Shown here piece by piece: positions 1,877 through 45,011 of a stretch of 64,000 bases of DNA. Source of the stretch: Squalus acanthias (taxonomy: Eukaryota); NCBI GenBank assembly GCA_030390025.1, contig CM059430.1:62682001-62746000 (forward strand). The letters run 5' to 3'. Below the pieces are notes generated by a model. That model saw only the letters and a program-made list of their open reading frames with translations, ran no database searches and was not told where the DNA came from. Every line of letters begins with the position of its first letter. Position 1 is the first letter of the stretch. The position numbers were made by a program, and so were the translations under genes.

Positions 1877-2060
1877 GACTTTATGTATGATAATAACTAG
1901 ATGCAGCAAAACAAATAGTGTATCATTACAGGGATTTGTCATCTGTGAAATACTATAGATTGATCAAAAATGTGCAAGGCAAGATCATTTTCTTACAAAT
2001 AAGTAAATGAAAATTCCTCAAATATTTAAGATAATAACAAACTATTACACCCACATTCAA

Positions 2061-2156
2061 TTACATGACACTAGAATATGTTACCCTGTTTTTTTTTGTA
2101 ATTCTCCGATTTTTCGACCCAGTCAATTCTAGAGTCGCTTCGGTGCCTTGTTTTAT
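2061..2156 (-). pseudogene. Decayed homolog of gene B's ITIM exon (now predicted 3' UTR of gene A)
   Basis: Acceptor gttgacag|ATA AAA CAA GGC ACC aligns with gene B ACC GAA CAA GGG ACA. A ~15-nt deletion removes the first Tyr motif and a 1-nt deletion follows LTGS. Confidence 0.6.
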
Positions 2157-3122
2157 CTGTCAACCCGTGTTTGGAAATATTGTAATTTGGTCGTTTTGCC
2201 AATTTTGTGGACTGCTGCCGAAAACAATCATCAGATTAACACACAGACAGCTTGAGGTACACTACACGACCCGAGTCACCCAACCCCTTGTAGTCTCAGT
2301 TATCGCATGAATGTTGGTGCTGCACTGGTGATCTGTGTCTTTCTGATCCACTACCCAGCCCCGGCTGATGGAACACAGTCCTCTCCTCTTCAAGTTTACA
2401 TCTTGTAGTTAACTTAATTCTGCTCTAACCTACTGCAGTATATCAACAATCTAAGCCTTTTCTACCCGCATGGGCCAGAAATAATTAAATATTTTCTAAC
2501 CTGGCTCGTTCATTGCCTTCACCAGTTTACAGACTACTGGTTAAACATTGAACAGAACAACATAGGCTAGATAGAAAGGGCAGGAAGCACAATTAATGCA
2601 GTGATACAAGTGCGAATGTTAAGACCGGTGAGTACTGGTCGTTATAACTAATAATTAAACCTATCAATATTCGTTTTACAATACAATGTTACAGAAATGT
2701 TTAAATGAGCGTAAGTTCCAGAATACTGAGTTGCCCAATTACAAATAATATTGAATCTATAAACAGTTATTAATTAGGAACATTTTCAACGAAGCTGACC
2801 GTTTTCTTCTCTGCTAGATAATCACTTAAACCAGCAACGCACCGGGGGCGCGGCTGAAATTGTTCTTCAGCGGTAGCGCGAAACAGGCGATAGCGATTCG
2901 GCATCCGGTTTTACACCCCGCTCGCATTTTTTTCCGAAAGCCAATTTCGCCCCGTGAGTGAAATCCTTTCCCGACGGCATCAAAAATGTTGTTGAATACG
3001 ATTTGAATGACCCATTAAGCGGAACAAATACTTTTAGGAAGTAGACAAACTACTCTGACGTGATTATGATATTAATCTTTCTTCATATTTGAACCTATTG
3101 CGGGATGAAGGAATAAATGTAC

Positions 3123-3164
3123 CAGCTCCTCACGCCAGTTCGGTCCCTTTACGGCAATGTTTCC
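3123..3164 (-). CDS. Gene A cytoplasmic exon 1, with in-frame stop at 3130-3132
   Basis: Acceptor gcttcacag|GG, donor CTG|GTACAT. 42 nt vs 44 nt in gene B, so the frame shifts to GKHCRKGTELA*. Confidence 0.65.
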
Positions 3165-6100
3165 CTGTGAAGCAATGAAATTTAATCATAATGAATGATT
3201 GAAATATTTACAGAATTTGCATGTCAATGCTTGCAAAGACCTTTCTAGAGTCGCTATAATGCCGAACATGGTTTTCAGATTCAGATTGTGCTGTTAGTGT
3301 TTGAAATCTCACTGCAGCCACCAGGAATGTTGTAAAACCATTCCGGGTCGGTGTCTCACACCTATTCAAAATACGTTCCATTCATCATGCTGCGAAATGG
3401 AAATTTCTGTTGCAAATATCCAGATAATCAGATCCTTTTAATTTAAATTCTGCGAGTATTTCTGCGTTTTAAAGAGCTGAATCTGTTGCTGTTTGGAACA
3501 ATCAGCGCTCCCTGAAATCAGATAGCACTGCCTTCAACTTTAAGTCATAATTTAAATCTCCATCCTCTGCGCTACTCGGAAACACTCACTCCCCCGTCCC
3601 CCGGAGCTCGCTGAAGTATTGTATGAAAATCAAATGCTTACAATAGATCTTACCTTTATTAATCTGCAACTGGCAGTGCATCCCAATGATGATCAGGAGC
3701 AGCAGGAACGCTAATCCATCAACCGCATATCTAAAACCCGAGTAGTAAGGGCACATACCGACGCTATCTGCAAGAATAATAGGAGCAAATATATTAAGTT
3801 GTACATAGTGGCGAGTGTTTGGTAAACGAGGCCACAGCAGAGTTCATTCGTTGAACTATTGATGTTTTTAGTAACCCCTTAGTATCCAACAGCAATAAGG
3901 ATGTTTTAATTAAAAAACTGTTATTCATTTTTAGATGTAATATTGGGAGGGACTTATGCACCTAATGGATAAGACAATTATGGCATTAACTGCGAAGAGC
4001 GATTGGTGCAGGAGAGGTAATATACGAGCGGAATGTTTCCCTGGAACGAATGGCTTGTTCTTATCGTAAACTTTTCTTATGTTCTTTACTTACTGTCTGA
4101 TGTAATCACAGGCAATTCGGGAACAATTGTTTCGCCGTTCCCTGTACAAAATGTCGAATTGCAGAAATCGTTTAAAACCCCCAGTTCACACGTCTATACT
4201 TCATTGAAGTAAGAATGTCACTGAATAGTGAAGGAGATGGTTTATTAATTATTCTCTGCCCAGTTTAGCAGTTCTTAATAAAATGATGTAACCTGCTGAA
4301 AAGCAGTCAGACAGTAAGAACAGTTTAAATTAAATGTATGAGACAGATCCCACTTCAGACCGCTGCGCCAAGATTAGAAGTAGGCCAAAGTGTTAATTTC
4401 AGAACTCTTCATTCAGAATCCGCAAAAAGCGGATCAGGATCGGGAACTGCATTGGGAGAAATCCGAGAGCAGACAACTTGATCGTAGCTCCTGGTAATCG
4501 TCCAGATGAAGCAAAACCAGATAATGGTAAGGAATAAACATTTTAACATGGAAATAAAACAAAGAGTAACAATCAGCAAAATATGAAATATAATCGGATA
4601 ACAAAGATGAGCCTCATGTTTATATGTGTTATGTATCAAATACAGGAACTTGAAGGCTTAATAATGTTTTACTGAGAATGTTTGTAAGGCAGACGATATA
4701 CCCGGTTTTACAACACATTGGTTTCCTCTAATCATTCAAACATGGATTTTATGTGTTCGTTTATATTCCCATGAGTTGTCCGTGTACTCCAGCAACCATT
4801 CAAAAAGACTTCCTTAATTTCACTCCCTTATGAAAAGATTTCCAAATTCTTTCGATTCAGGTGCCCACGGCTCCGACTTACATCCCCAAGAAAACCACAC
4901 TCCTTCCAATGCAGCAGTACAACCTCATACTCGCCATGCGCAAAGCCATGAGAAATAAGCATTATATATGGATTTCCAACGGTACAGTACATTTGAGCAT
5001 AGGCTATTCAATAACAAGAAGGTGACTCCGGGGGTTATAATATCATCAGTCTCCTGTGGTGTTGCTCTTCTTGAAATTGTATCTTTGCTCCTTTCCCACT
5101 TGCGAATTACTTTTGTGCCGCCCTCTCTATCTTTGTCTTACACCATTTTTTCTTCATCTTTCTATTTGTATGTTTGTCTTACACTTTATTCATTCTGCTG
5201 TCTGTAACGGTCTATGTAAATGTCTATGCAGCAATGTTTTGCATTTTGTCTGTTTCCCTTCTAATGAATTAAATCTCTATTATTTCTCTCCTTAGGTAGT
5301 TCCAAATGTTGTGTATTGGCTCCCACACAAGTTCCATTTTTAATATATTAAAAATCTATCTCTTCCCATTGTTTAAGTACTTCGGGATGTGGGAAGATGC
5401 AAGGCAACATGTACTAGGTGAAAGAGGCTTTTGGAGAGGTGATGCAAGATAGAGATTTGAGACAGAAAAAGGGATGGGGAGACTGTCTGACTGGAAGGGG
5501 TGTAGGCAGAGCTGTGGCCAGGACGAAACAATGGAATAGATTTCGATCATGAAAGTTGGAGGGGAAGGTAGTCTTGAACAGAATGGAAGAAGGTACGACC
5601 TAGGATTAATCATGTTGTCTTGTTTGGGACTGTTGGGATTTGGAAACTTGATGGGATTTTAGCGTGTGTTCTTGGTTGCTCGGCTTATCTTGCACTGGGG
5701 GGGGGGGGGGCGGTGGGCGGTGGGCGGGGGTAGAAGGCAATTGCGTAACTGAAATGTGAGACCTGGGAACACAGGAAATGAGCTTGTGTTTGGGAGTAAT
5801 TGACAGTGTAAAACCCCTCACAGTGAATCGCCCATCAGAGGCCGGACTCAGGAGCCCCAGTAGGAGACGCTCGAAACCATACAAACGAACTGCCGCTCTT
5901 GGTCCTGCAACGGATGTAAGGAACCAGATAAAGGGAAACAAATGAGTTTTGAGTAATCAGCAAGAAATGAAAATAATTGGATAAAAGAGGAACATCGCCT
6001 GATCATATTTGTTTTAACAATTGGAAGCTGATGAGGTTTAACAGGCAGTTACTGGGTGGAGGACGATAATAATCATTCGGCTTTACTATGGTTAAGTGTC

Positions 6101-7970
6101 AACAAGATTGTACATTGAAACATTAATTTTCTCTTTGCTTTGATATTTCCTGGGAGTTTATTTTTAAACAATCTTTATGATTATCAATATGAATAAACTA
6201 TATGAAGTACCCTTTTCAGAATATAACTGCAGCTGACCTCACCTGTTCCATTCGTAATTGGGTCGCAATTGTTAACTGTGTAGCTGGCAATGGCGGGTAT
6301 CTGAAGGGAGGCATGAGATACCAAACAGATGTAAACATCCCCGTTAGGCACAGACTGCGTCTCTTCAAAAGGGCTGGAAACTTCATACAGTCCCTCAGTG
6401 TTCTGCCGTTTAGTGTCATTTATCCCAGTTGCGGTTTCGACGCCATTTTTATACCAAACGAGGGTTAAATCGCCCGGGTAAAACTCAGCCGTTTCACACA
6501 CAAGAATCAGAAACGCAGATGAAATGCTCTCCGGTGTCCTGGGGGAAATCTTCAATGGAGTTGGGGCAGCTGTCGAACAGAGAATGTAGAAAATCAGGTT
6601 ACTGGGGAGATATTAAGCATAAGATATGGAAGAACAATGGTATCCTCAGTCGCTCTCTGTTTGTTTGTCACTCTGGGTCTGTCTGTCTGACTCCCCAAGA
6701 GAGCCGTGTTTATGGCGGGAGCGGTGCATTATTAGAAAAGATTTTCAGCCAGTCATCAATATATTTGGAATTTGTTCCGCAACTTCCATCTTCAGAAGTC
6801 TGATGCAAAAATTACATTTTGAGATGAATAGTGTAACATGTTAACTTGTTAGTAACTTTAATATTGCTGGAATTTTACACAACTCAGCAAATGAAGCGTC
6901 ATATTATGCCGTATAATTAGTAGTTGTGTGCAGAGTTTCACTGTAAATGTAGTAATATATTGTTTTATAATATCAAAGACGGTGCAATAAAACAATGACA
7001 AAACATCATCATTGTTACATTTGGAAATTCCCGCTCTCTCCGGTCACTTACCGCTCACAGTTAGATGTGATCCTGTTCCTTTTCCAATAATTCTTCCCTG
7101 ACGGATCACTGCGCACTGATACACTCCAGAGTCCCGATAGTCGCGCTCAGTAACTCAAATAAACCGTCTCCATTATCTTTCAGAGTAAATCTTTTTCTGC
7201 TATCGGCTACTCTTTGCAGATATTCATTCTCACCCTCTTTCTTCCAATGCACTTCTATCCCTGAATTGCGAAGGGACCCTGGGACTACGCAGTGGAAGGT
7301 GATGTTTGTCCCCATTAATATCGCTACTTTTCTGGGATTTTGAGGCACGCTGATCGAAGAGTTCGGAAATTCCCGCTCTCTCCGGTCACTTACCGTTCAC
7401 AGTTAGATGTGATCCTGCTCCTTTTCCAATAATTCTTCCCTGACGGATCACTGCGCAGTGATACATTCCAGTGTCCCGGATAGTCGCGGTCAGTAACTCA
7501 AATAAAGCGTCTCCATTATCTTTCAGAGTAAATCTATTTCTGCTATCGGCTCCTCTTTGCAGATATTCATTCTCACCCTCTTTCTTCCAATGCACTTCTA
7601 TCTCTGAATTGCGAAGGGACCCTGGGACTACGCAGTGGAAGGTGATGTTTGTCCCCCTTAATATACGTACTTTTCTGGGAGTTTGAGACACGCTGATCGA
7701 AGAGTTCGCAGCAGCTGTTGGAAAATATATTCAAAGTTTGCTTAATTGTTTTCTATGCGGAACCAAACACTTTAAAATGCATTTCTACATGGAAATGAAA
7801 AAGCGTTAAAAGAATACAGACCGACTAATTATATTTCATTCAATTTGTGTGGTAACTATTTCAGGTATGTTTTTAATTAAGACAGATCGATTTGAGAATA
7901 AACAGGTACCTGTGAAAATGATCCCTGGGAGAGACAGGAACAGGAAAAGAAACATCACAGTCGACAACAT
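3130..7970 (-). CDS. Gene A: V-C1-TM IgSF receptor with short tail (candidate activating or decoy form). Spliced CDS join(7910-7970, 7394-7714, 6243-6569, 3654-3767, 3130-3164), 285 aa
   Basis: All introns are GT-AG and phase 1, giving one open frame: signal peptide MLSTVMFLFLFLSLPGIIFTA, V domain, C1 domain, TM exon, then GKHCRKGTELA*. Exon for exon paralogous to gene B. Confidence 0.75.
3654..3767 (-). CDS. Gene A transmembrane exon: DSVGMCPYYSGFRYAVDGLAFLLLLIIIGMHCQLQINK
   Basis: Acceptor tattcttgcag|AT, donor AAAG|GTAAGA, 114 nt, phase 1-1. Same length as 41801-41914. Confidence 0.8.
4399..4490 (-). CDS. Gene A candidate alternative terminal exon (hydrophobic, GPI-signal-like): GATIKLSALGFLPMQFPILIRFLRILNEEF*
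   Basis: Acceptor ttaccag|GA, phase 1. Same 92-nt length and stop position as paralog 42578-42669. Minus-strand AATAAA at 4241-4246. Confidence 0.45.
6243..6569 (-). CDS. Gene A exon 3, Ig C1-set domain plus hinge
   Basis: Acceptor ctctgttcgacag|CTG, donor ACAG|GTGAGG. C1 motifs LVC..EFYPGDLTLVWYKNG and YICLVSHASL; extra Cys in NNCDP. Confidence 0.9.
7052..7364 (-). pseudogene. Orphan second V exon (V-psi) in gene A intron 2
   Basis: Direct tandem repeat 7023-7364 / 7365-7707. Keeps the GTAAGT donor but lacks the splice acceptor, and has a 1-nt deletion near 7135 (gtcccgatag vs gtcccggatag) that frameshifts before DSGVYQC. Confidence 0.85.
7394..7714 (-). CDS. Gene A exon 2, Ig V-set domain with germline-joined J-like strand
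   Basis: Acceptor ttttccaacag|CTG, donor AACG|GTAAGT, 321 nt. Motifs ITFHC...VHWKK...DTGMYHC...GKGAGSHLTV. Confidence 0.9.
7910..7970 (-). CDS. Gene A exon 1, signal peptide
   Basis: ATG at 7970, hydrophobic 20 codons, donor ACAG|GTACCT (phase 1). Nearly identical to 44951-45011. Confidence 0.85.
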
Positions 7971-8039
7971 TCCGAGCAAAAGATTCAACTGATCACTGAC
8001 TGCACAGACCGTGTGTTTGCCACTGAAAGAAGGGTTTGC

Positions 8040-8160
8040 TGATTATTTAAACCGAAATGCTTCGTAATGACGTTTGACATCCTGTGTCTGTGGGTTAAAA
8101 ATGGGTTTCGTTTGTGAAGTGAAATTTGATGACCGTTCTGCTCTTAGGCAGCCATTGGGA
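8040..8160 (-). promoter_or_regulatory. Putative proximal promoter of gene A (paralog ~45080-45200)
   Basis: CCAAT 8154-8158, IRF-like GAAGTGAAA ~8116-8124, CRE half-site TGACG ~8068, TATA-like TTTAAATAA ~8044-8052. All retained upstream of gene B, but the motifs are short. Confidence 0.35.
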
Positions 8161-8937
8161 TCAGCTGTGTCACGGTCAACAAAGGCTTTGGAAAAAAAAA
8201 ATCCGAATTCCAAATAGAGAATTTACCACCGATCGCTGAGCCAGTGTTGGTTTCTCCCAAATGAAGATGTCGAATGTGCACATTCCTTGTAGTGAATCTC
8301 GTGAGGCAAATATTCTTACACTTCCCTTAGGCTGGACGCTGCTGTTAACGTCACACAATAGACTACAGACGTCAAAGCGGGACAAACTGGGAACATTTAT
8401 AAATTGTTAATAATTAGTTCTTAAATAACAGTAGCAATATTTTATGATAAATACTGAAGGTGAGAAAATGACTGATTAACACAGCAGTTGTGTATAGAGA
8501 CTGTTCTACTATAATTCCAAGCATTGCTGCACATTTCACGTGATACTGGTGAGCTCCCATTCATTGTGATGTGTTATATCTCGGGAGACCTGATGCTATT
8601 CCGAACACAGTGACCTGAATCAGAACCGTCAATGATAACGATGGGGTTTATTTTCACCTTAAAATAACCTTATTGAATATTTAGGAAATAGAGCTTTGAT
8701 GATTCCTTCAGAGAGCTGCCGATGTGTGTTTGAGGTCAGGGCTTCTTTGCAAATGCAGTTTCCTGCTATCAGCGCGTCCTGCATAAAATGTTTGGAGGGA
8801 AATGTTGGTAGCCACGATGAAACTGTGCAAATTGGTTTGATAGCGGATATATTCGCTAGATTTTTTAAAAGGGCGTCTAGTGAGCTTCCAGGTCAAGAGC
8901 TTAATGGCCAAAAATATGTTCCGTAAGGTGAAGGGTA

Positions 8938-9677
8938 CCCAGAAATTAAACACGGAGCGTTCCTGCCGGGGTAAGGCTTCCCCGCGATATCTCACTGCGC
9001 GCCTACCTTTTCCCTCCGGGCTCACACGAACTTTAGTTTCAAGGCTGCAGCTGTGCAGTGCTTGCGTGAGCCAGAGACGCAGTTAGTTCGTGCGAGCTCT
9101 GGGATCACGTGATTCAGTTAGAGCCAATGGCAGCACACCATCTTTCATTCATAGTTTTGACAGGAAGACCTGTCAAAGCTATGAATCTATACCACCCCAA
9201 AAGAACAGCTAAACCTCAATTAATTTTTTTTAAAGCCATCACATTAATAAAATAAGTATAGTTAAATAAATTAACCACTTTAAACAAAAAATAAAAATTT
9301 TGAAAAAATGTAAAATCTTTTTATAAGTTATAAAAATAAACTTACCTTTCTTTAAAGTCTCTAAAAAAGATAAATCTGTTGAAAAAAATTTAAAATAATA
9401 CTTAATTAACTACTTACCTTGTTAAAAGAGGGTCTTACGCCTCCTTTCTTTATGTGCAAAATCTTCCATGCTTACCTGCGCGTTCAAAGCACTAAGTGCA
9501 CTGCGTGCGTGCAGCCTGTAGCGCGCACCCGGTTAACTTAGGAACCGCCCCCTTTTGAATTCACGAAGTGCCGGTTTCCCGCGCATGCGCAGTGCATGCT
9601 GGAAACCGGCAATTGAAGACCTAAAATGCAAGAGTACACAGTGCGTACTCTCGCGTATTAGGTCTAATTTTCGGGCC
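8938..9677. mobile_element. MITE-like TIR element ~1 kb upstream of gene A
   Basis: Ends cccagaaatt...aattttcgggcc. Empty site in the paralog at ~45965 (aagggtaatattctt). Confidence 0.85.
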
Positions 9678-9929
9678 AATATTTTTCTCATTCGAGTGCA
9701 TGGGAGTCTTCGTAGTTATTTGAAGTGTCTCCTAAAGCGTTCTCACATTGCAGCTGTCAACGGACGCCGCACTTAGAAAGTGTAGGTAAGGCTTTGTGCG
9801 TAGTACAGTATGCCACAAATTATTACCTACAATTTTTGATTGATTTATACAATCACACACCCTTCAGTTTATCTGATGTTTGTGGTCAAGTGTGGAGAGT
9901 AGCGAATGTTTCCAATCAAAACCAGAACA

Positions 9930-12900
9930 TACGAACACAAGAACATAAGAAATAGAAGCAGGAGTAGGCCATACGGTCCCTCGAGCCTGCTCCGCCATTC
10001 AATAAGATCATGGTTGATCATTGACCCCAACTCCACTTTCCCGCCCGATCGCCATATCACTTGATTCACTTGGAGTCCAATCATCTCTCTATCTCAGCCT
10101 TAAATATGATCAAAGACTCAGCATCCACAGTCCTCTGAGGCAGAGAATTCCAAAGATTCACAAACCTTTGAGTGAAGAAATCTCGGTCTTAAGTGGCCTA
10201 CCTCTTATCCTGAGACTATGCCCCATAGTTATAGACACTCGTGCCAGGGGAAACAACCTCTCAGCATCTACCCTAAATATCCCCTTCAGAATCTGTATGT
10301 TTCAATGAGATCACCTTTCATTCTTCTAAACTCCAAAGAGTATAGGCCCATTCTACACAATCTCGCATCATAGGACAGCCCTCTCACTACAGGAATCAAT
10401 CCAGTGAACCTTTGTTGAACTGCCTCCAAGGCAAGTATATCCTTCCATAGATAAAGAAACCAAAACTGTGCACAATACTCCAGGTGTGGTCTCACCAAGG
10501 CCCAATACAATTGTAGCAAGACATTCTTACTCTTATACACCAACCCACTTGCAATAAAGGCCAACCGGCCATTTGCCTTCCTTATTGCTTGCTGTACCTG
10601 CATGCTAGCTTTCTGTATTTTTTGAACGAGGTCACACAAATCTCTCTGAACACCAACATTTAAAAGTTTCTCATGTTAAAAAATATTTTGTTTTTCTATT
10701 CTTCCTACCAAAGTGAATAACCTCACATTTCCCTACATTATACTCCATCTGCCACCTTGCTGCCCACTCACTTAGTCTACCTATATCACTTTGCATACTG
10801 TTTGTGTTCTCCTCACAGCTTACTGTCCAACCTAGCTTTGGATCATCAGCAAGCTTGGATACATTACACTCAGTCTATTCATCTAGGTCATTAATCTAGA
10901 TTGTAAATGGCTCAGGCCCCAGCTGTGATCCTTGAGGCACCCCGTTAGTTACAGCCTGCCAACCTTAAATCGTGTATCCCTACTCTCTGCTTTCTGTCCA
11001 TTAACCAGTCCTCGATCCATGCTACTCTATTACCCCAAACCCCATGAGCCCTTATCTTGTGTAATAACCTTTTATGTGTCACCTTACCGAATAACTTTTG
11101 GAAATCCAAATATACTACATCCGCACGTTCCCCTTTATCTACCCTGCTAGTTACATCCTCAAAAGACTCTAATAAATTTGTGAAACTCGATTTTCCTTTA
11201 ATAAAACCATGTTGACTCTGCCGAATCATGTTATGATTTTCTAAGTGACTTGATACCATTTCCTGGACAATGGATTCCAGCATTTTCCCGATGACTAATG
11301 TCATGCTAACTGGCCTATAGTTTCCTGTTTTCTCTCTCCCTCTTTTCTTGAACAACGGTGTTACATTTGCTACCTTCCAATCCGCTGGGACCATTCTCGA
11401 ATCTATACTATTTTGGAAGATCAAAACCAATGCATCCACTATCCCACAGCTAACACTTTTAGAACCCTAGGATGTAGGCCGTCAGGTCCTGGGGATTTGT
11501 CAGCTATTACTCCCATTAGTTTCAGGAGTACTTTTTCTCTACTTATATTAATTATGTTAAGTTCCTCACCTTCATTCTACCCTTGCTTTCCCACCATATT
11601 TGGTATTCTTTTTGTGTATTCTACTGTGAAGACAGACACAAAATATTTGTTTAACGTTTCTGCCATTTCCTTGTATAATAATTTCTCCTGTCTCAGCCTC
11701 TCAGGGACCAACGTCGACTTTTGCGACTCTATTCCTTTTTACATACTTGTAGAAGCTCTTACAGTCTGTTTTCCTATTTCTTGCTAATTTTCTGTCATAT
11801 TCAATTTTTTCCCTTTTCATCAATGTTGTGTTCATCCTATGCTGGTTTCTGAAATTCACCGAATCCTCAGGCTTACTAGTTTTCTTTAGAACATTACATA
11901 GAAACATAGAAACATAGATGATAGGAGCAGGAGTAGGCCATTAGGCCGCTCGAGGCTGATCCGCTATTTAATGAGATCATGGCTGATCATCCAACGTCAG
12001 TACCCTGTCCCTGCTTTCCCCCAATATCCCTTGATCCCTTTAGCCTTAAGAAATATATCTAACTCCTTCTTGAATATATTTAATGAATTGGCCTCAACTG
12101 CCTTCTGTGGTAGAGAATTCTACAGTTTCTACACTCCCTGGGTGAAGAAATTCCTCCTCATCTCAGTCTTAAATGGCTTACACCTTATTCTTAGACTGTG
12201 ACCCCTGGTTCTAGACTCCCCCGCCATCGGGAACATCCTTCCAGCATCTAGTCTGTCTAGTCCTGTTAGAATTTTATAAATTTCAAGTTTCAAGCTTTTT
12301 CTTTCAATCTAATGCTATCCTTAACTTCTTCAGTTAGTCACGGCTGGAACACTTTTCTCGTGGAGTTTGTGTTTCGCAATGGAATGTATTTTTGTTCAGA
12401 ATTATGAAATATTTCTTAAAATGATAGCCACTGCTTAGCTACTGCCATACCTTTTAATCTGTTTTTCCAATCTACCTTAGCCAACTCGCCCCTCATACCT
12501 ACATAATTGGCTTCATTTAAGTTTAAGACTCTTGTTTCAGACTGAGCAATTCACTCTCAAACTTAATGCGAAAAAAACTGGTTTTTACTTTTTTAAACGC
12601 TTATGCTGGTAAAAGAAGGCCTTACACCTGCATGAACCAGGCGTAAGATTTTTAAAGGTTTTCAGCAGGCAGAGTTTGTGCAGAAAGCAAAACTCCCTGC
12701 CTGCACAGGCCCTTTTTCCCGGGCAGGCGGAGGATCTGTCAAGAGACTTCTGTGCATGTGCTTCACCTGCCTGAAACTGGAACTTGTGAAGCCCCTACGG
12801 GTGTGTACACAGCTCGTACGCATCCGCAGCGATCGGAAAATACGGGACAATGTGAAATTCTATCATATTATGATCACTCTGCCCCAGAGGATCCTTTACT

Positions 12901-14250
12901 CTCAGATTGCTTATTAACACTGTCGCATTGCACATTACAAAATCTGAAATAACCTATTCCCTAGTTGGTTCCATGATGTATTGTTCTAGGAAACTGTCCC
13001 GAATGCATTCCATGAACTCGTTCTCCAGACTACCTTTGCCAATTTGATTTGTCCAGTCTATGTGAAGATTAAAGTCCCCCACGATTATTGCATACCTTTT
13101 TTACAAGCACCTACTATTTCTTGATTAATATTCTGTCCAACGGTATACCTACTATGCCCACCAGTGTTTTCTGCCACTTGTTGTTCTTTATCAACACCCA
13201 TACTGATTCTACTTCCTGATCTTCTGGGCCAAGATCCTTTCTCTCTACTGTCCTTATGTCATCCTTTATTCTCAGTGTTAACACCCCCACCCTCCTTTTC
13301 AATTCTGCCTGTCTTTTCGAAACGTCAAGTAACCAGGAACATTTAGTTCCCAACCTTGGTCACCTTGCAACCACGTCCATGTAATGGCTATTAGATAAAA
13401 CCAATTTATCGCTATTTTTGAGACTAGTTCATCTATCTTGTTACGAATGCTTCGTGCATTCAGATAAAGAGCCTTTAATTTAAATGTTTTACCATCATTC
13501 CCTGCTTTGACCTGATTCTCTGATGCACTGCTGCCGTTAAACTCGCTGTCCCTTCCTGTCACGCTCTGCTTATTTTACCTAAATCACTACACTGCTCTGT
13601 TGCCTTGACCTTTCTCTTTAGATTTCTAAATTTCCCCACACCTGAACCCACCCCGCCCGCTTTTTTTAGTTTAAAGCCCTATCTACAGGCCTAGTTATTC
13701 AATTCACCCAGACGCTGATCGCAGTCTGGTTTATGTGGTGCCCGTCCCAATGGAACACCTCCCTTTTTCCCCAGTACAGGTGCCTTTGCCCCATGAATTC
13801 AACACCCTTCTTCCCACACCACACTTTGAGCCATGTGTTTAACTTTCTGATCTGCATGATACTATGCCAATTTGCGTGTGGCTCAGGTATTAATCCAGAG
13901 ATTATTACCCTTGAAGTTCTGCTTATTCATTTAGACCCTAGCTCCTCAAACTCGATCCTCCCCCTCCCACTCCAAGTTCTTCTCCAGCCACGAGGAGTTA
14001 TCCTTAACCCTGGCACCGGGCAGGCAACACAGCCTTCGGGACACTCTTTCACAGCTGCAGAGAACAGTATCTATCCCCCTGACTAAACTGTCCCCTACCA
14101 CTACCACATTCCTTCCTGCTCCCCCCACTTGGTAGGTCCCCTGTACCACGGTGCAGAGGTCAGTTTGCCCATCCTCCATGCAGTACTTTTCCTCATCCAT
14201 ACAGGTAGCAAGTACCTCTTACCTGTTGGACAAGGTCAAGGGCCGAGGAT
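9930..14250 (-). mobile_element. Degenerate CR1-type LINE (ORF1 esterase remnant, endonuclease, RT), with a nested younger CR1 3' fragment at ~11895-12280
   Basis: ORF fragments LYLNARSIRNK, GNYRPVSMT, YLDFQK, VRPHLEYCAQFW, VVVVGDSLVRG. Paralog 46220-49140. Confidence 0.9.
12570..12848. mobile_element. Partial MITE of the same family
   Basis: Similar to 450-694. Absent at the paralogous site ~48478. Confidence 0.65.
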
Positions 14251-15606
14251 CAATAGGATCCAACAACAACAAAAATCTGTATTTTATAACGCCTTTAAAA
14301 GAGCAGAAAACTTCCCAACAGGCATCGCAAAATCAAAAGGAAAATGTAACTTAAATTCACGACCTCGTCCGTTTTATGTGTAGGATAAGTACTGACCAGC
14401 AACAGGAAGTGCTGAGATATTCCACAAAATGATGTAATACTCAGCACAAATGCTTAATATCCTGATGGAGCTCATATTATCATATGTCACTGGCTCTGCT
14501 TTTATTGTGTAAGACTGCATCACTCATTTTATTAAAAGTTAAATTAAATTTTATAAAATACAGTCTATCTCCCATAGTGCTGGGAAAGGCGAATCAAATT
14601 GGAGTTTAATCATCAGGTGAAGCAGGATTAGAGGCTGGGTGATATTTGGACCAGTGAATGCAGACGTAGCTCTATTTCCATTTAAATTCATATACATTCT
14701 GTCCTGTAAATTCCCATATTAATTTCTATGAAATTTCCTACTGAACCGTTAGCCTGCAATTGCACCCACTGCCAGAGGCGGCACTGCAATGCCTCTAATG
14801 CAAGGACCGCGGACAAAACTTACAGTAGAAATGGTAAAGTTGACTGGAAAAGTGCACTAACATAATATATGGTACTGATGGAATTCTGCCTTGATTGAAC
14901 TGCCGCCTTTAAGATTAACTGAGTAGAGCTGCATTTAAGGGGCGGCTAGATACGCATATGAGAGTGAAGGGAATAGAGCATTATGCTGATAGAGTTTTTG
15001 GAGGAAAGGTGGGAGCAGGCTTGAGTGCTGCATAAACGCCGGCATGGACTGGTTGGGTCGAATGGCCTGTTTGTGTGTTGTATATTCTATGTAATTCTAT
15101 GTAAGGATCAATCTACCTATTTAGGTAGAAGTAAAAGAACCCAAGCTATCTTTGAAGAACGATGCATAGTTCTCCCTGTTTCCTAGTCACAAATCCTTCC
15201 CATAGATTTTTTTCACTCCCCCGTCTGCTATCCCGTGTGTTGTGTCAGTGAAATTGAGAATTGGATCCAAACTGGCCCATGGTGTTCTGTGGCCCCTGCC
15301 AGCAGGAACTGGCCAAGCATATTTTGTACGTTTACTGTCAGGATCAAAGTAAACTCTGGCATTAAATGTCAATATCACAGAGTTGCACGCTGCCATTCCT
15401 GAGAATTCTTGAAGCAATTGTTCGAATTGATTCCTGAACATTTCTAATTGAACTAACAAATTAAATAGCCAATAAAATGACGTTCATTCACCCAATGCAG
15501 GGGATATAAATCAATCACTTTGTTTCAATCACATAACACAGTTATATAAACCAGTAAATACGTGCGTTTAATATCTGTAGTTACATAAAACATAGTTACC
15601 GGTTTT

Positions 15607-16540: not shown

Positions 16541-16769
16541 ATTTGAACACAAAGACAACATATTGCACATGGGCAATTTAAAGACGCTAATAACTGACAA
16601 ATAGCTAACTAATTAATCACAGTAACCAACTACTAATTTATTTAACAGCACGCTGAGTTCACCTACTTAATTTATCAATGCCTCAAGTGATCAAATAATT
16701 CAAGAAATAAACTAACTATTTAAATATGAAATGCCTTTGCAGGCAGTGTGTCGGGATTTCAGTGTTTGG

Positions 16770-17186: not shown

Positions 17187-17419
17187 CACTGCCACATCTG
17201 CTAGAAATGTCTCTGTTTCGAGATCCTCTGGCTCAGAGTCATTGCGCTGGAGTCAGAGTTAGAGACATTCTGACATATAAGGGAGGAGGAGAACTTACTG
17301 GATAATTTTCGCCAGAGGACAGCGACACACCAGTGGAAAGTACAGGTGCAGCAAAGGGAGAATGAGACTGCCAGTAAGCCGGGTAAGGGGAACGTAGGAG
17401 AGGTAGAGAAGAAGGTATG

Positions 17420-30740: not shown

Positions 30741-30914
30741 CTAATTTATTCTTGCTTCTGTGTAGACAGCCTCTTTTACTCCTCTTTGTTTTTTGGTCTT
30801 CAGCTGGGCATACTCTGTGCTTCGTTCATTATTTTTATATTTCCCCGTTTTCTCTGAGCCAGTCAATGCTATAGCTGCGTACGTCAGTTTGTCACGGGCT
30901 GTCCCTTGTTCGGT
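30741..30914 (-). CDS. Gene B terminal exon with ITIM LTYAAI, ITSM-like TEYAQL and a third Tyr (AVYTEA)
   Basis: Acceptor ggctttacag|ACC, phase 0. TEQGTARDKLTYAAIALTGSEKTGKYKNNERSTEYAQLKTKKQRGVKEAVYTEARIN*. Confidence 0.85.
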   Translation of the reverse strand, partial: TEQGTARDKLTYAAIALTGSEKTGKYKNNERSTEYAQLKTKKQRGVKEAVYTEARIN

Positions 30915-33900
30915 CTGTAAAGCCAATGTTTGGAAATATTGTTAATTGGTCGTTTTGCAAGTTCTCTGGACGGCTGCTCAAAGCAGGCATTAGAAGGACG
31001 CACAAATACTTCTTCGATACAACACACGGTCAAAGTCAGCGCAAACATATGCCGCCCGCTATCGCATGAATGTTGATGTTACACTGACGATCTATGTTTC
31101 CCTGATCTTTTACTCAGTCCTACCTGAGCGTACACGGTTCTCTCCGCTTCAATTTCACGTCTTGGAGTTTTCCGACTTCGGTTTAAATCTAATGCAGCAT
31201 AATGCACGGACTCAGCCGCTGCTTCCTGCATGGGTCAGAAAGAAAGAGTTTGGTTATGTGGCTAGTTCATTGCCTTCACCAGTTTACGTACAGCTGATAA
31301 AACATTTAACGGATTGACCGAGGCTACAGATCAAGTGCACAAACCACAGTTCATATATATTTAGATAAGTGCGAATGTTAAAGCACTGTGGGCCAAGTAA
31401 CTTATATTCAAACCTGTTAATGTTTAGCCTGCAAACAGTGTTACAGAAATGTTTAAATCAGCGGCAGCTTTAGAACATAAAGTTTTTTTCCAAAACCAAG
31501 AACTAAATATGGCAGGGTACTTAACTTTTAGAAGAGATAGTCAAAATGGAAAAGGAGGGCCGGTTGCTCTGATAATAAAGGATGGGATAAAGACAGTGGA
31601 GAGAAAGGTTCTTAGCTCCGAAAATCAAGATGAGGAATCACTTTGTTGGACCTCTGAAACAACAAGGGAAAGAAAACACTGGTGGGAGTAGTGTACCGGC
31701 CCCTAACAGTAGTTGTAGTGCCGTGCACAGTTTCAATCAAAAATAGAGGAAATAGCAGATATTAAACACATATTTTGTATCTGTCTTTACGGAACAAGAC
31801 AAAATAGTGGGGAACCAAGGTTCTAGTTAGAATGAGGACCTTAAAGAAATTAGCATTAGAAATAAATGGTACTTCTGAAAGTTGTGGAAGGTGTCATCGA
31901 CAGTGCTATCAAGCGACACTTACTCACCAATAACCAGCTCACTGATGCTCAGTTTGGGTTCCGCCGGGACCACTCGGCTCCAGACCTCATTACAGCCTTG
32001 GTCCAAACATGGACAAAGGAGCTGAATTCCCGAGGTGAGGTGCAAGTGACTGCCTTTGATATCAAGGCAGCTTATGACCTAGTGTGGCATCAAGGAGCAC
32101 TAGTAAAACTGAAGTCAATGGGAATCGGGGGGAAACCTCTGCACTGGCTGGAGTCATACCTAGCACAAAGGAAGATGGTTGTGGTGATTGGGGTCAAACA
32201 TTCCAGCCCCAGGACATTACTGCAGGAGTTCCTCAAGGCAGTGTCCTTAGGCCAAACCATCGTCAGCTGCTTCATCAATGAACTTCCCTCCATCATAAGG
32301 TCAGAAATGGGGATGTTCGCTGAAGACTGCACAGTGTTCAGTGCCATTCACAACTCCTCAGATAATGAAGCAGTCCATGCCCGCATGCAACAAGACCTGG
32401 ACGACATCCAGGCTTGGGCTTATAAGTGGCAGGTAACATTCGCGCCACATAAGTGCCAGGCAATGATTATCTCCAACAAGCGAGAGTCTACCCAGCGCCC
32501 CTTGATATTCTACGGCATTACCATCGCCAAAGCCCCCACCATCAACATCCTGAAAGGTCACTATTGTCCAGAAATTTAACTGGAGAAGCCACATAAACAC
32601 TGTGGTAACAAGAGCAGGTCAGGGGGTAGGCATTCTGTGGCGAGTGTCTCACCTCCTGACTCCTCAAAGCCTTTCCACCATCTACAAAGCACAAGTAAGG
32701 AGTGTGATGGATTACTCTCCACTTGCCTGCATGAGTGCAGCTCCAACGAGACTCAAGAAGCTCGACACCATCCAGGACAAAGCACCCCGCTTGATTGGCA
32801 CCCTATCCACCACCTTAACCATTCACTCCCTCCACCACCGGCGTACCGTGGCTGCAGTGTGTACCTTCTACAAGATGCACTGCAGCAACTCGCCAAGGCT
32901 TGTTCGACAGCACCTCCCAATCCCACGACCTCTTCCACCGAGAACGATAAGGGCAGCAGGCGCATGGAAATATTGTTAATTGGTAGTTTTGCAAATTCTC
33001 TGGACTGCTGCTCAATGCAGGCATCAGAAGGACACACAAAAAAGTCTTCGATATAAAATTCTGCACCATGGCGGTGACCTTGTTTCCAGACTAGCTGCCC
33101 GCTGTATGTGTGCTAGATAGGTTCTTGATTGTATTTTTGATAATCTACCCTGTGCCCACCCCTAAAACGAGAGTAAAAGAGATATTTAAAGAGCGTTTAG
33201 CACAGACGATGAAGCGAAGTGAAGAGCTGTTCGCACACGCCAGCCGTCTGTCTGATCGGGACCGATACCAGCTGCTTGTCACGATCGTATGTCTGCTATG
33301 TCTATCTTGATTGCGTGTTGTACTTAACTTAAACTACCTCTTCTTAATAAAATGCCTTACAACTCCTAAGACCCTTTGGCTAATCGGTGTGTGTCCTGTG
33401 ATCCAAATGTTTAAATTGTGTCAGAATTGGAATCAGAGAGTTGGGAGTTGTAATGTTCTGGTTGTAGAGACCAGAGGGACTTGGTCGACCGCGCGTGATC
33501 ATCACTTGAGACTAAGTAGAAGACTCCCTGAAAGAGGGAGAGGCAGAGAGTTGGGTAAAGTTAAAATCAATAGTACAATGACGTTGGCACACCATCGAGA
33601 ACAGCCTGACAGAAAAAGTCTGCACCTCCACAGCAGCGGACCTCGTAAAAATCTTAGAAGATGGTAACGGGGACAATGACTACATCCTTGATAAACTCTC
33701 TGAGGTTGTTAAGAAAAACAAACTTAAAATAAAGAGAGGCCGAGACAGGTTAGCCTACGGGGCACACTTGTGCGCTGCCAAGTTAAACAGGGAGACGAAA
33801 GAGTTAAAAGTTTAAGTAAGCCAAATGCAGAGAGAAATAAGTGAATGGCGAGAGAACCTTTCTGCCCTCCGCAACCACTCGCGCTGGGAGCAAAAGATTC

Positions 33901-39900: not shown

Positions 39901-42900
39901 ACATGGATAGACTTTTGGATACTAAGGGAACCAAGGAAATAGGGACAGTGCGGGTACGTGGATTCGAGGTAGAAGATCAGCCATAATCCTATTCAATGGT
40001 GGAGCAGGTTCGGAGGGCCGAATGGATTACTCCTGCAACCATTTCTTATGTTCTTATGATTCTATAAACAGTTATTACCCAGGTACTTTTTCAACGAAAC
40101 AACCAGTTTCTTCTCTGCCATTGAACAATTTTTTCAGTAACGCACCGGGTGCCAAGTACATTTCTAACATTGGCCCAGAAATTTGACTCGGAGGCTTGCC
40201 GCAGGGGTAAGGATCCCCCGCGATATCACACTCCGCGCCGGCCGTTGAGTTTCGGGCCCACAGGAACTTCGGGTCCTGGGCCTCTCCCCGGCGCGCAGTG
40301 TGCGCGTGTCCCAGAGATGCAATTATTGCGATGCGACCTCTGGGATCACGTGGGCCATGGAGAGCCAATGGCAGCAGACTATCTTTCATTCATAGATTTG
40401 ACAGGAGACCTGTCAAATTTATGAATACAAATTGCACCCAAAAGAACAGCTAAACCTCAAATAATTTTTTTAAAAACCATCACATTAATAAAATAACTAT
40501 AGTTAAATAAATTAACTACTTGAAACAAAAATTTAAATTTTTGAAAAATTTAAATTCATTTTAAAGGTTATAAAAATAAACTTACCTTTCTTTAAAGTCT
40601 CTAAATAAGATAAACCTGTTGAAAAAAATTATTATACTTAATTAACTACTTACCTTGTTAAAAGGGCGTCTTACGCCTCCTTTTTTCATGTGTAAATTCT
40701 TCCATACTTCCCCTCGCGTTGAAACCTGAAAAAAAAACTCGTTGTGTGCTGCGTGCGCACAGCCTGAAGTGCGCACGCGGTTCACCTAGGAACCGCCCCA
40801 CACGCCATACCGGAAGTGCCGTTTTCCCGCGCATGCGCAGTGCATGCAGGAAACCGGCACTTCGGGATCGAATACGGGTGAGTACACAGTGCGTGCTCTC
40901 CCGTATTAGGCCGAATTTTGGGCCTATGATTTGAATGACTCACTAAGACCGGACAAATACATTTAGTCATTAGACGTAAATTGTTCTGACGTGACTATGA
41001 TATAATCTTTCCATTATAGCAATCTTTCTTGACATTTCAATCGCCTACTGGGATGGATGAATGAACGTACCAGCTCTTGAGGGCGGTTCGGTCCCCTTAC
41101 ACATTCTTCTTTACCTGGAAACGATTGAAATTTAAAGATATTGAAAGATTGCAACATTTACTCAGTTTCAATGTCAGTGATTGCAAAAACATTTCTAGAG
41201 TCAGACAAAGCCGAACATGATTTCCAATTCCGGATTGTGCCGATAGTGCTTGAAATCCCAGCACTTGTAGCGATCAGCAATGGTGGATTTTTTTGATATT
41301 TCTCGGAAACTAAGGGAATCTTTGTGGGCATTAGGGGATCAGGCGATATGGGGATAGGGCGGGAAAGTGGTGTTGAGGTAGAGGATCAGCATGGCGGAAT
41401 AGGCTCAAGGGCAGTACGGTCTAACACTGCTCCTATTTATTATGTTCTTATGTGTACAACCAATCCCCGGCCGGATCCTCACACTCCTTCACTCAAATTA
41501 GTTGCGCATCCATAACAGAATGGGTTGGAAAGTGATTGTGTGTCAGGGTACATGTCATTTATTATGCTGCAAAGGGGGCACTTCTGTTGCAAACATACAA
41601 ATAATTATTTCAATTTTTATTACGATTCTTTGAGCAATTCAGCGTTTTAAAATGTATTTAGAACAATCCGTGCTCCCTGAAACAGATAACACTGTTTTCA
41701 TCTTTAAGTCCTAATCGAGTTCTGCTTCCCCAATGTTACCGGAGACTGTCATTAACCCGCAGGTTTTGTAATAAAATAAAGGGCCTACAGTTGATCTTAC
41801 CTTCATTCTTCTGCAGTCGCCACCGCGTCCCAATGAAAATCACGAGCACCAGAAACGCCAATCCACCCACCGCACACCCAGGAGCCCAGATATAAAGTGA
41901 ATTATCGGCACTACCTGTAAGATTAATAGGAACATTAAGTTATGGTGGGCGTTGGCTAAGAATAGGCCTCAAGATAGATTGAGTTAAACTATGATGTTTC
42001 TTTCAGTAACTCCGCGGTATAGAACGGCAATAAGAAAGATTAAATACAAAATGTTATTTCTTTTAGATATCATCTTTAAGGTAACTTCTTCGTCGAATGG
42101 ATGAGACATTCGGGATTAATCCGCACAACACACTACCGGTTTACGGATCTCACAACACTGTTTTAGGAGAGTTAGAATACGAGAGAGATCAATTTCCCAT
42201 GACCAAAAGACTTGTTCTTGACGTTTCTTATTTATTAACATATAGTTTGAGGAAATTGGAGGCAAATGCGTCACAAGAGTTTTTTCTTTGCCGGCACAAA
42301 ATTCTGGGTTGCTGCAATCGGTTAAGAATCCCCTTTCAATTACCTGACCTTTGTTTTTTACAGTAAGAAGGTCACTGAATAGTAAGGGCTATCAACGGGC
42401 AATGGTTCATTGATTATTGCCCTTCGGGGCAAAGAGTTCTTCACAATATGACGTATCGAACCGGTTGAACTGTCGCCAGGTTGCGGGCACAGGTTAAATG
42501 AGATTTATGAGACAGATTCCAATTAAACCCGTTATGACATGGACGGGTGAGGGGTAAAAGCTGGCCAGGGGTTAATTTCAGATCTCTACAGTAGAATTAG
42601 CCGATAGGGGGATGAGGATCAGGAACTGCATTGGAAGAAGCCCAAGTGCAAACAGCGTGACTGCTGCTCCTGGTAACAGTCTTGGTACAAGGACAGCAGG
42701 CAATGGTAAAGAATAAAACGATCTTAAAATTGAAACAAAATAAATTGAATAAGTATTCATAATAAACAGGTGAGGAAATATAATCGGATAGAAGTGATAA
42801 ACTCTTGTTTATAATTGTTATAAATTAATAAAAGGAATATGACATAAAATAATGTTTGACAGAATATGTGTGTGGCTGGATGTGGGGTCGGCAGAGCTGT

Positions 42901-45011
42901 GGCCAGGAGGTACCAATGGAATGGATCTCGACCATGAAAGTTAGAGGGGGATGTAAGCTTGAACAGAATGGGAGAAGGTAAGATCTCGGATTAATCATGT
43001 TGTCGTGTGTGAGAGTACTGGAATTTGGGAAGAGAATGGAATTTTAGTGTGTGTGTTCTTGGTTGCTCGGATTATCCAGCACCGGGGGGTAGAAGGCCAT
43101 TTCGTAACTGAAATGCGAGACCTGGGAACACAGGAAATGAGCTGGTGTTTGGGAACAATGACGGTGTAAAAGCCCTCACCGTGAATCGCCCATCAGAGGC
43201 GGGATTCAGAGACGCTCGAGACCAGACAAACGAACGGTCGCTTCTAGTCCTGCAACTCATGTAAAGAACCAGGAAATGGGAAAAATGAATTCAGTATAAC
43301 AAAAGCAAACGGTTGATTCTTTAGTAATAAGCAAGAAATGTAAAATAATTGCATAGAAGAGATAAACAGCCTGCACGTATTTGTTTTAACAATTGGTAGC
43401 TGATGAGGTTTAATAGGCAGTTACTGGGTGAAGGGCGATAATAATCCTTCGGTTTCACAACGGGTCCGGGTCAACAATATTTTACATTGAAACATTAATT
43501 TTCTCTTTGCTTTGCTGTTTCCTGGACGTATTTTCAAAATAAATTCATGATTATCAATATGAACAAACTTTATGAAATACCCTTTCAGAAGATAACAGTA
43601 GCTGACCTCACTTCTTGGCCTGATGCCTTCGTACCTGGGTCGCAATTGATAACTGTGTAGATGGCAATGGCGGGAGTCCGAAGGGAGGCATGAGATACCA
43701 AACAGATGTAAACAGCCCCGTTCGGCACAGGCTGCGTCTCTTCAAAAGGGCTGGAAACTTCATACAGTCCCTCAGTGTTCTGCCGTTTAGTGTCATTTAT
43801 CCCAGTTGCGGTTTCGACGCCATTTTTATACCAAACGAGGGTTAAATCGCCCGGGTAAAACTCAGCTGTTTCACACACAAGAATCAGAAAGGCAGAAGAA
43901 TTTCTCTCGGGTATCCTGGGGGAAATCTTCAATGGAGTTGGGGCAGCTGCGGAACAGAGAATGTAGAAAATCAGGTTACTGGGGCGATATTAAACATAAG
44001 ATATGGAAGAACAATGGTATCCTCAGTCGCTCTCTGTTTGTTTGTAACTCTGGGTCTGTCTGTCTGTCTCCCCAAGAGAGCCGTGTTTTTGGCGGGAGCG
44101 GTGCATTAATAGAAAAGATATTCAGCCAGTCATCAATATATTTGGAATTTGTTCCGCAACTTCCACCTTCAGAAGTCTGATGTAAAAATTACGTTTTGAG
44201 ATGAATCGAGTAACATGTTACTTAATCTGGTTAATATTGCTGGAATTTTTCACAACTCAGCAAATGAAGCGTCATGTTATGCCATATAATTAGTAGTTGT
44301 GTGCAGAGTTTCAATGTAAATGTAGTAATATAATTGTTTTATAATATCAAAGACGGTGCAATAAAACATTGACAAAACATCATCCTTGTTACATTTGATA
44401 CATTTGGAAATTCCCGCTCTCTCCGGTCACTTACCGTTCACAGTTAGATGTGATCCTGCTCCTTTTCCAATAATTCTTCCCTGACGGATCACTGCGCAGT
44501 GATACATTCCAGTGTCCCGGATAGTCGCGTTCAGTAACTCAAATAAAGCGTCTCCATTATCTTTCAGAGTAAATCTATTTCTGCTATCGGCTCCTCTTTG
44601 CAGATATTCATTCTCACCCTCTTTCTTCCAATGCACTTCTATCTCTGAATTGCGAAGGGACCCTGGGACTACGCAGTGGAAGGTGATGTTTGTCCCCCTT
44701 AATATACGTACTTTTCTGGGAGTTTGAGACACGCTGATCGAAGAGTTCGCAGCAGCTGTTGGAAAATATATTCAAAGTTTGCTTAATTGTATTCTATGCG
44801 GAACCAAACACTTTAAAATGCATTTCTACATGGAAATGAAAAAGCGTTAAAAGAATACAGACCGACTAATTATATTTCATTCAATTTCTGTGGTAACTAC
44901 ATCAGGTATGTTTTTTATTAAGACAGCTCGATTTGAGAATAAACAGGTACCTGTGAAAATGATCCCCGGGAGAGACAGGAACAGGAAAAGAAACATCACA
45001 GTCGACAACAT
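30741..45011 (-). CDS. Gene B: V-C1-TM IgSF receptor with ITIM/ITSM-like tail (inhibitory type, SIRP-like organisation). Spliced CDS join(44951-45011, 44435-44755, 43635-43946, 41801-41914, 41071-41114, 30741-30914), 341 aa
   Basis: Six exons, all GT-AG, phases 1,1,1,1,0, summing to 1026 nt with no internal stop. Confidence 0.85.
31866..32965 (+). mobile_element. RT fragment of LINE family 2
   Basis: ORF 31866-32579, DAQFGFR...FDIKAAYD. Confidence 0.85.
33052..38861 (+). mobile_element. Degenerate env-bearing LTR retroelement / ERV in gene B last intron
   Basis: 3' LTR 38386-38861 (TGTAAGA...TCTTACA) after PPT aaggtggggag. Partial 5' LTR 33052-~33413. PBS-like ttgtgtcagaattggaat 33416-33433 (resembles tRNA-Leu PBS). 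Gag CCHC CNLCQRLGHYARQC, RT start NSLVWSVRKPGDYRMTIDY, env-like Cys-rich fragments at 37.0-37.9 kb. Confidence 0.8.
38862..40060 (+). mobile_element. CR1 RT / 3' portion; a 5' part is probably at 31500-31865
   Basis: VVYLNLQNTFDKVPH, SQGSLFRPQLF, MRGDLIE, tail ttcttatgttcttatg. Confidence 0.85.
40172..40924. mobile_element. MITE-like TIR element in gene B last intron
   Basis: ggcccagaaattt...aattttgggcc, same internal motifs as the other copies. Confidence 0.85.
41071..41114 (-). CDS. Gene B cytoplasmic exon 1: GKEECVRGPNRPQEL
   Basis: Acceptor gtttccag|GT, donor CTG|GTACGT, 44 nt, phase 1 in and phase 0 out, matching the next exon. Confidence 0.75.
41801..41914 (-). CDS. Gene B transmembrane exon: GSADNSLYIWAPGCAVGGLAFLVLVIFIGTRWRLQKNE
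   Basis: Acceptor aatcttacag|GT, donor GAAG|GTAAGA. Uncharged hydrophobic span followed by the basic stop-transfer RWR. Confidence 0.88.
42578..42669 (-). CDS. Gene B candidate alternative terminal exon (GPI-signal-like): GAAVTLFALGLLPMQFLILIPLSANSTVEI*
   Basis: Acceptor ttaccag|GA, phase 1, 92 nt, hydrophobic. Minus-strand AATAAA at 42231-42236. Confidence 0.5.
43635..43946 (-). CDS. Gene B exon 3, C1-set domain
   Basis: Acceptor ctctgttccgcag|CTG. Phase-1 donor CCAG|GTACGA at 43635; the GTGAGG at 43611 would be phase 0. FYP and YICLVSH motifs. Confidence 0.85.
44435..44755 (-). CDS. Gene B exon 2, V-set (VJ-type) domain
   Basis: Same splice sites as gene A V. One substitution (ACC>AAC, T>N) relative to 7394-7714. 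Confidence 0.9.
44951..45011 (-). CDS. Gene B exon 1, signal peptide
   Basis: ATG at 45011, MLSTVMFLFLFLSLPGIIFT, donor ACAG|GTACCT. Confidence 0.85.

Follow-up and report, generated by a model that had tools for sequence, protein, structure and literature searches.

The window analysed here is a 64,000-nt stretch of Squalus acanthias contig CM059430.1 (assembly GCA_030390025.1, positions 62,682,001 to 62,746,000 of the forward strand) and contains two paralogous receptor genes, A and B, both on the minus strand with 37 kb between them. Each is predicted to encode a V-set domain (V), a C1-set domain (C1) and a transmembrane (TM) segment, and gene A carries its V in two tandem copies, only one of which appears to be spliceable. 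Self-BLAST matched a duplicated block at 5484-21366 to one at 42869-58566, with approximately 10 % divergence in its upstream, repeat-rich portions. The exon models are predictions from splice sites, with GT-AG frames open in both genes. In gene A, the leader exon (7910..7970) is followed by the spliceable V exon (7394..7714; AG/GT, phase 1), a C1-set exon (6243..6569) and a TM exon (3654..3767), giving a predicted protein of 285 aa; the counterparts in gene B (leader, 44951..45011; V, 44435..44755; C1, 43635..43946; TM, 41801..41914) begin a predicted protein of 375 aa. Pfam returned V-set for the V (B copy, E=9.6e-10) and C1-set for the C1 of gene A (E=8.4e-12). The C1 donor used by gene B has been lost in gene A (6243-6258 vs 43635), where a GT 15 nt further downstream serves as the predicted donor with the phase unchanged.

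Nine sequencing runs were compared with the window (best word share 0.42), and four of them aligned over 6200-7425, covering just 61 bp of the upstream V. At 16/40 listed sites these runs match neither A nor B, suggesting that they come from another population or species; we refer to them as the related runs. In one run, which we guess to be RNA, two contigs of a family member in a related organism match the leader-V and V-C1 splice points, one covering the V-to-C1 join and the other the leader-to-V join, at homologous sites.

Tandem Repeats Finder returned a 2.0-copy array with a period of 343 and 95 % matches at 7023-7708. The upstream copy (in gene orientation; 7365-7708) differs from gene B (44406-44749) by a single substitution at 7489, and the A and B V exons differ at 1/322 positions. 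The downstream copy, hereafter the orphan (7023-7364, minus strand), differs from B by 16 substitutions (16/342, 4.7 %) and a 1-nt deletion near 7137. It starts 7-8 nt into the V exon and so has no acceptor, while the donor and approximately 30 nt of intron are retained. At the non-homologous junction (7364/7365), intron position ~+30 is joined to V exon nt 8-9, with one C matching both parental sides. Beyond the orphan lies the native V-C1 intron of gene A (6570..7022), which differs from that of B at 26/449 positions. A sequence-only reading of this locus had described two head-to-tail V copies, the functional one a single nucleotide from that of B and the other approximately 5 % diverged and stripped of its acceptor, meeting at one shared base; all of this is borne out by the alignments. 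Codon 76 reads T, N and S in the three copies, and the change at 7489 (N76T) removes an N-glycosylation sequon from the V of gene A.

No second adjacent duplication of at least 60 bp at 88 % identity or above was returned by the BLAST filter in the window, and no templated insert was found at the junction. Hairpins at the breakpoints were not significant (z-scores -0.67 to -0.84 in 4/4 windows). A 9-nt extra direct repeat is present in B and in the contigs of the related runs but is missing from A (7015-7023 vs 44397-44406); the copied tract stops at its first base, which may be chance or may mark a copying stall point. A 10-mer fitting the NF-kappa-B consensus ends at the junction and is duplicated along with the unit (starts 7374, 7032 and 44415, minus strand). 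These are three of the six matches in the window, and we did not take the 10-mer as functional, since the related contigs read other letters there.

The near-identity of the two genes is not confined to the V exon. Over 7365-7846 (B, 44406-44887), A and B differ at only 2/482 positions, the private sites 7489 and 7750, while the flanks differ more (upstream, 14/218 and 62/855; V-C1 intron, 26/449, 5.8 %). The intronic part of this tract, approximately 160 bp, holds one difference, significantly fewer than the V-C1 intron (Fisher P=0.003), indicating that selection on the protein cannot explain it. The longest A/B stretch with no more than two mismatches, measured through the spliceable V, spans 493 columns, a length that none of 20,000 permutations reached (maximum 360); measured through the orphan instead, it falls to 169 columns (p=0.18, 5,000 permutations), and the tract is gone. 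These data support the placement of the spliceable V of gene A within a recent conversion tract common to B. By the same measure, the earlier argument that duplication followed by decay would not suffice without conversion is upheld.

By contrast, the orphan resembles its native surroundings. Its 16/342 differences do not depart from the divergence of the intron (P=0.53), and the C1 core differs between A and B at 15/298 positions (5.0 %), as the sequence-only reading had noted; extending the count to where the exon of A stops gives 20/328. The orphan, intron and C1 are thus alike in divergence, suggesting one block of like age in which the spliceable V is the newcomer. From V to tail, the divergence between A and B rises steeply (V, 0.3 %; C1, 5 %; next intron, 15.6 %; TM, 31.6 %; first ITIM exon, 31.9 %, where ITIM denotes immunoreceptor tyrosine-based inhibitory motif). 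A 135-bp portion of C1 is identical in A and B (6355-6489 vs 43732-43866) and may be either a small conversion tract or conserved sequence.

The substitutions that separate the orphan from B suit a once-functional V better than simple decay. All 16 are nonsynonymous, in 14 codons, where 26 % would be expected to be synonymous (P=0.008; P=0.02 with a triple-change codon set aside), and none creates a stop codon. The C1 differences include 5/15 synonymous changes, compared with 0/16 in the orphan (Fisher P=0.018). Among 13 relatives with at least 48 % identity, the orphan carries the commoner family residue at 7/14 changed sites and B at six, with one tie; the sites that favour the orphan include K60 and S82 (each 12/13), G70 (11/13) and T100 (10/13). 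The orphan:B tally was 7:6, 7:6 and 7:7 in sets of 10, 23 and 65 sequences, respectively. Against a 23-sequence profile, the orphan scored 9.0 bits under the V of B, a small loss next to the 41.0 +/- 12.6 bits lost on introducing 16 mutations at random; only 0.56 % of 5,000 trials matched the orphan. Taken together, the residue tally and the profile score show that the orphan did not arise from the present V by decay. In a tree of 21 V domains, the V domains of A and B pair (98/91) with the orphan as their sister (100/99), and the protein branches leading to the orphan and to the pair are equal in length (0.078 and 0.079). By its divergence, the stranded copy is likely to be gene A's own former V.

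How a B-type V came to stand in front of the former one can be reconstructed only conditionally. Of the readings considered, we place about even confidence in one in which gene A's own V was displaced when one side of a DNA break was extended on a B-type template before end-joining closed it. A double-strand break would have occurred a few bases into the V exon of gene A, and the upstream end would have invaded B or a B-like paralogue, converting approximately 130 bp upstream of the exon. Synthesis would have continued through the V exon and approximately 30 nt into the intron before the new strand came free; instead of annealing in register, it would have been joined to the opposite side of the break through a single matching C. 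Splicing in gene A would then pass over the orphan, linking the leader to a B-type V and this in turn to C1, the TM and a short tail. Each of these steps is a proposal; what can be read directly are the tandem, the tract, the match in divergence, the gene models and the ITIM-like motifs of B with their loss in A. Such a repair predicts that the tract should stop at the junction, and the last informative B-type base, 7396, lies within 31 bp of it. A precedent for the joining step exists: according to the portion of PMC8654963 available, aborted intermediates of synthesis-dependent strand annealing (SDSA) that are closed by end-joining yield tandem duplications of 100 bp-10 kb with microhomology at the junction. 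The tandem V shares with these its head-to-tail arrangement, its size (a 343-bp period within 100 bp-10 kb), the identity of the duplicated part with the copied part and, if a single matching base counts, microhomology at the junction. The duplications described in that portion of PMC8654963, however, arose by polymerase-theta end-joining from a sister template in helq-1 or brc-1 mutant worms, and their copies are identical, whereas the proposed template here is a paralogue approximately 5 % diverged, the microhomology is 1 nt and there is no templated insert. The 4.7 % difference between the copies would fit either a paralogue template or a later conversion.

The direction of transfer was probably B to A, and the V exon of gene B is the likely template or a close relative of it; the donor may have been B, an allele of a B-like gene or a B-like paralogue. 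The conversion or unequal exchange proposed by the sequence-only reading is supported in part: A and B have a recent tract in common, and by its divergence the orphan falls in the native block of gene A. We hold more tentatively the fuller proposition that a single paralogue-templated repair gave an activating-type receptor the V of its inhibitory partner in place of its own, freezing a previously positively selected V within an intron.

Several observations weigh against this account. Genes A and B share the same orientation, whereas opposite orientation has been argued to favour intrachromosomal conversion (PMC5112662, as excerpted). As many as 11 contigs of the related runs overlap at a single position, indicating a family of several copies, and the donor need not be B. 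A 1-base microhomology is common by chance, as approximately 44 % of joins made at random would match at one base or more (1-(3/4)^2), and is weak evidence. None of the 29 contigs listed (of 252) bridges 7364/7365, a silence that is evidence neither way. A recent local duplication plus conversion predicts the same tree. About half of the differences were derived on the orphan's own branch: the related runs agree with B at 7116, 7124, 7146, 7209 and 7314, match neither the orphan nor B at 7324, and retain the base that is deleted from the orphan, giving at least six orphan-derived substitutions plus the deletion (from 40 of 234 substitution rows listed). With P10 and N12, approximately eight changes would be orphan-derived, to residues that are rare in the family (P10, 0/57; M20, 0/60; V55, 1/55). 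For this smaller number the statistics soften, with eight random mutations reaching the orphan's score in 10.5 % of trials and 0/8 synonymous changes giving only P=0.09. The 14 residue differences are scattered over the V domain in an AlphaFold model (pLDDT, the predicted local distance difference test, 91.6), and residues 30-37 and 87-99, the modelled BC and FG loops, are identical between the orphan and the V of B, so that a change of specificity is not evident. SIRP alpha binds through such loops. If gene A also binds through its BC and FG loops, specificity may have changed little with the swap, and any adaptive gain from it would be hypothetical.

The strongest competitor to a single repair event is a sequence of two close steps, in which a sister-templated tandem duplication of A's V was followed by B-type conversion of the upstream copy only. 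We consider this a genuine possibility, although a less probable one. It predicts the same tree and the same match of the orphan to A's intron and C1, and each step is common singly: V-exon conversion is described in paired receptors (PMC5112662, PMC4042635) and small tandem duplications in PMC8654963, each source being represented here by excerpts. The orphan-derived changes, approximately eight, and the frameshift would leave some time as a dead copy. It requires, however, two events at one exon and a tract that happens to reach within 31 bp of the junction, as the single repair predicts outright, and the substitutions in the orphan include neither a synonymous change nor a stop codon. Import and duplication as one event or as two close events fit the data nearly alike.

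The history could also run in reverse: an old duplication of the V of gene A would have left a downstream copy that decayed and an upstream copy that went on evolving and recently converted the V of gene B. The orphan would then be a dead duplicate and not a displaced exon. The equal protein branches and the rarity of the orphan-derived residues P10, M20 and V55 are compatible with this, as is a precedent for conversion from an activating-side gene into the inhibitory one, SIGLEC16P to SIGLEC11, in the excerpted text of PMC5701461. Nevertheless, we judge it improbable. The absence of synonymous changes among the orphan-derived set (P=0.09) sits poorly with it, and the duplication would need to have happened just when the intron and C1 were last homogenised (4.7 vs 5.8 vs 5.0 %). 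The residues derived on the working branch are just as unusual (N60, 3/65; T82, 2/65; A100, 1/64), indicating that rarity by itself is no mark of decay. Long decay on the orphan branch is thus disfavoured, and fast protein change on both branches is the simpler reading.

An assembly artefact, whether a false tandem joined from alleles or paralogues or a V of gene A polished to the sequence of B, appears slightly less probable still. The family is multi-copy and near-identical, and the junction occurs in none of the contigs listed (29 of the 252 records); the related runs differ from both genes at 16/40 listed sites, so they are silent on the source individual. Within the window there is no N and no similar adjacent duplication elsewhere, the differences between the copies (16 substitutions and one indel) are biologically patterned rather than error-like, and the tract retains two private differences from B (7489 and 7750). 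These internal signs favour the junction being real in the animal's DNA. In runs X1 and X5, one contig each skips 150 nt over 6942-7093, losing the end of the V exon and the donor, suggesting that the related organism has damaged V copies of its own. The last alternative, that purifying selection alone keeps the V exons alike and the orphan is a plain decayed duplicate without any conversion, has general plausibility and nothing more, and is very improbable given the ~160 bp of intron with a single difference (P=0.003 vs the V-C1 intron), the 12-18 other letters per 120-240 bp in family V contigs of the related runs and the departure of the working V, not the orphan, from the family residue at 7/14 sites; the sequence-only reading had itself named uniform selection as the observation that could overturn it.

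Returning to the outcome of the proposed repair, gene A now has two near-identical V donors. Where human F7 has identical donors in tandem, splicing was seen at the first of them alone (PMC1557585, in the part available), a precedent that would favour normal splicing of gene A with the orphan skipped. Splicing from the orphan's donor would instead yield a product containing V alone, ended by a stop two codons past the V. Two other arrangements were rejected: mutually exclusive use of the orphan, because 0/10 AG sites in the first 130 nt past the V donor give an open leader-orphan-C1 frame, and read-through from V to V, which meets a stop two codons past the V donor.

Beyond the ectodomain, the two genes differ in their signalling parts. 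The TM exon of gene B is uncharged and is followed by a first cytoplasmic exon (41071..41114), an exon encoding the ITIM-like motif VHYAAL (31124..31225) and a last exon encoding LTYAAI, TEYAQL and the stop (30741..30914). These fit the ITIM consensus, a match by motif only. In gene A, the TM exon (37/117 differences vs B) places an Arg at the outer edge and an Asp inside the helix, with no central Lys, an arrangement that may resemble that of FcR-gamma-coupled receptors. The Asp is Gly in both B and P0010, a predicted protein from another genome. The first cytoplasmic exon of A (3123..3164) is frameshifted relative to B and stops after 11 codons, leaving a tail without tyrosine, and the homologues of B's two ITIM-like exons (2060..2470) have decayed, with a stop, a 1-nt gap and the Tyr motifs deleted. 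The TM exon of A matches P0010 (76 % over 21 aa), and the P0010 model also ends soon after the TM, suggesting that the short-tailed, Arg-edged type is present in another genome. The tail of B matches Heptranchias P0154/P0163.

In anatomy, A and B look like a Siglec-5/14-type pair, an analogy that the sequence-only reading had drawn and that is strengthened by the ITIM-like motifs that B carries and A has lost. As in Siglec-5/14, Siglec-11/16, CEACAM1/3 and the Xenopus ceacam pairs (excerpts of PMC4042635, PMC5701461 and PMC5112662), they are neighbouring paralogues with a near-identical V-type exon, a divergent TM and tail, and ITIM-like motifs in one member but not the other. The homogenisation is limited to the ectodomain, as conversion in Siglec-5/14 and 11/16 (PMC4042635) and in the Xenopus ceacam pairs (PMC5112662) is limited to the ligand-binding part, and the Xenopus N exons (PMC5112662) show a nonsynonymous excess after conversion, as here. 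V-exon conversion between paired receptors is described in both directions in the part of PMC5701461 available. Two differences stand out against these partly available sources: the recipient exon in those pairs is overwritten, whereas gene A retains an older V in tandem, and SIGLEC11/16 are head to head, whereas A and B share the same orientation.

The 24 named relatives of A and B all come from sharks, rays and chimaeras, and bear automatic names that do not agree with one another (among them 'tyrosine-protein phosphatase non-receptor type substrate 1-like', SIRP-alpha-like, 'SIRP beta-1-like' and 'tapasin-related protein-like'). These chondrichthyan V-C1-TM(-ITIM) proteins have the domain order of A and B, with V domains 44-59 % identical and C1 domains up to ~70 % identical; no V relative above 59 % identity appeared in the protein searches. 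We found no paper describing this cartilaginous-fish V-C1 family, in a literature covered partially.

A and B share with SIRP alpha and SIRP beta-1 a V-set plus C1-set order, a J-like GxG in the V exon and the combination of ITIM-bearing and short-tailed members. SIRPs have one V and two C1-set domains, whereas A and B each have a single C1 exon between V and TM, a different architecture. Searched against structures, the family profile matched SIRP alpha (2wng, E=1.4e-29, fourth of 60 shown) but also IgA1 (2.3e-33) and UrIg2 (8.6e-31); in a fold search with the V, nanobodies and VNARs ranked above SIRP alpha (rank 22), and a PDB search with the V alone gave weak Robo/I-set matches. Atlas features put SIRP-alpha-like clusters first for P0018 (0.94). 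With a single C1, and with SIRP alpha holding no clear lead among the structures, A and B were not assigned to the SIRPs. The non-rearranging shark VJ-C1 genes UrIg and UrIg2 also place a single-exon VJ-type V before a C1-set exon (PMC12227049 and PMC10751288, in part). UrIg2, however, is V-C1-C2-C3 and antibody-like (PMC12227049, as excerpted), whereas in A and B a single C1 leads straight to a TM and signalling tails; against the three constant domains of UrIg2, this assignment was rejected.

V-exon conversion in paired receptors is already known, and the new part is the displaced V kept in tandem. For a displaced V retained beside a conversion, or for a SIRPB1/SIRPA case, we found no precedent in the partial literature covered. 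Paired-receptor conversion normally erases the recipient sequence, so that direction and prior state are guesses, while here the likely prior state adjoins the new exon, with 14 residue differences, none of them silent, that could be compared for ligand binding. If the single repair is correct, aborted homologous repair in the germline, mainly described with sister templates, could also build a tandem exon from a paralogue, offering a route to exon shuffling, and the usual re-matching of an activating-type/inhibitory pair would have left the replaced exon as a before-and-after record. A receptor allele from before the swap may then still segregate in the species. More broadly, the locus points to a cartilaginous-fish paired-receptor family found under automatic gene names alone. 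This is nonetheless one small event in one assembly, and gene clusters of this type are expected to rearrange in such ways.

The window also contains several other features. Paralogous 30-bp tandem arrays of 13.9 and 11.1 copies (16769-17186 and 53755-54086) lie within the duplicated upstream block, with open frames on either strand. A 984-codon stop-free frame occupies 22483-25434 (minus strand) and resembles the endonuclease/reverse transcriptase ORF of a long interspersed nuclear element. In the long cytoplasmic intron of gene B, direct repeats of 88 % identity (33052-33411 and 38499-38858) flank fragments with a CCHC-like knuckle, and 33052-38858 has the appearance of a decayed long terminal repeat element. 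At 62798-63604 (minus strand), short frames are reminiscent, in our view, of retroelement RNase H and integrase-adjacent parts.

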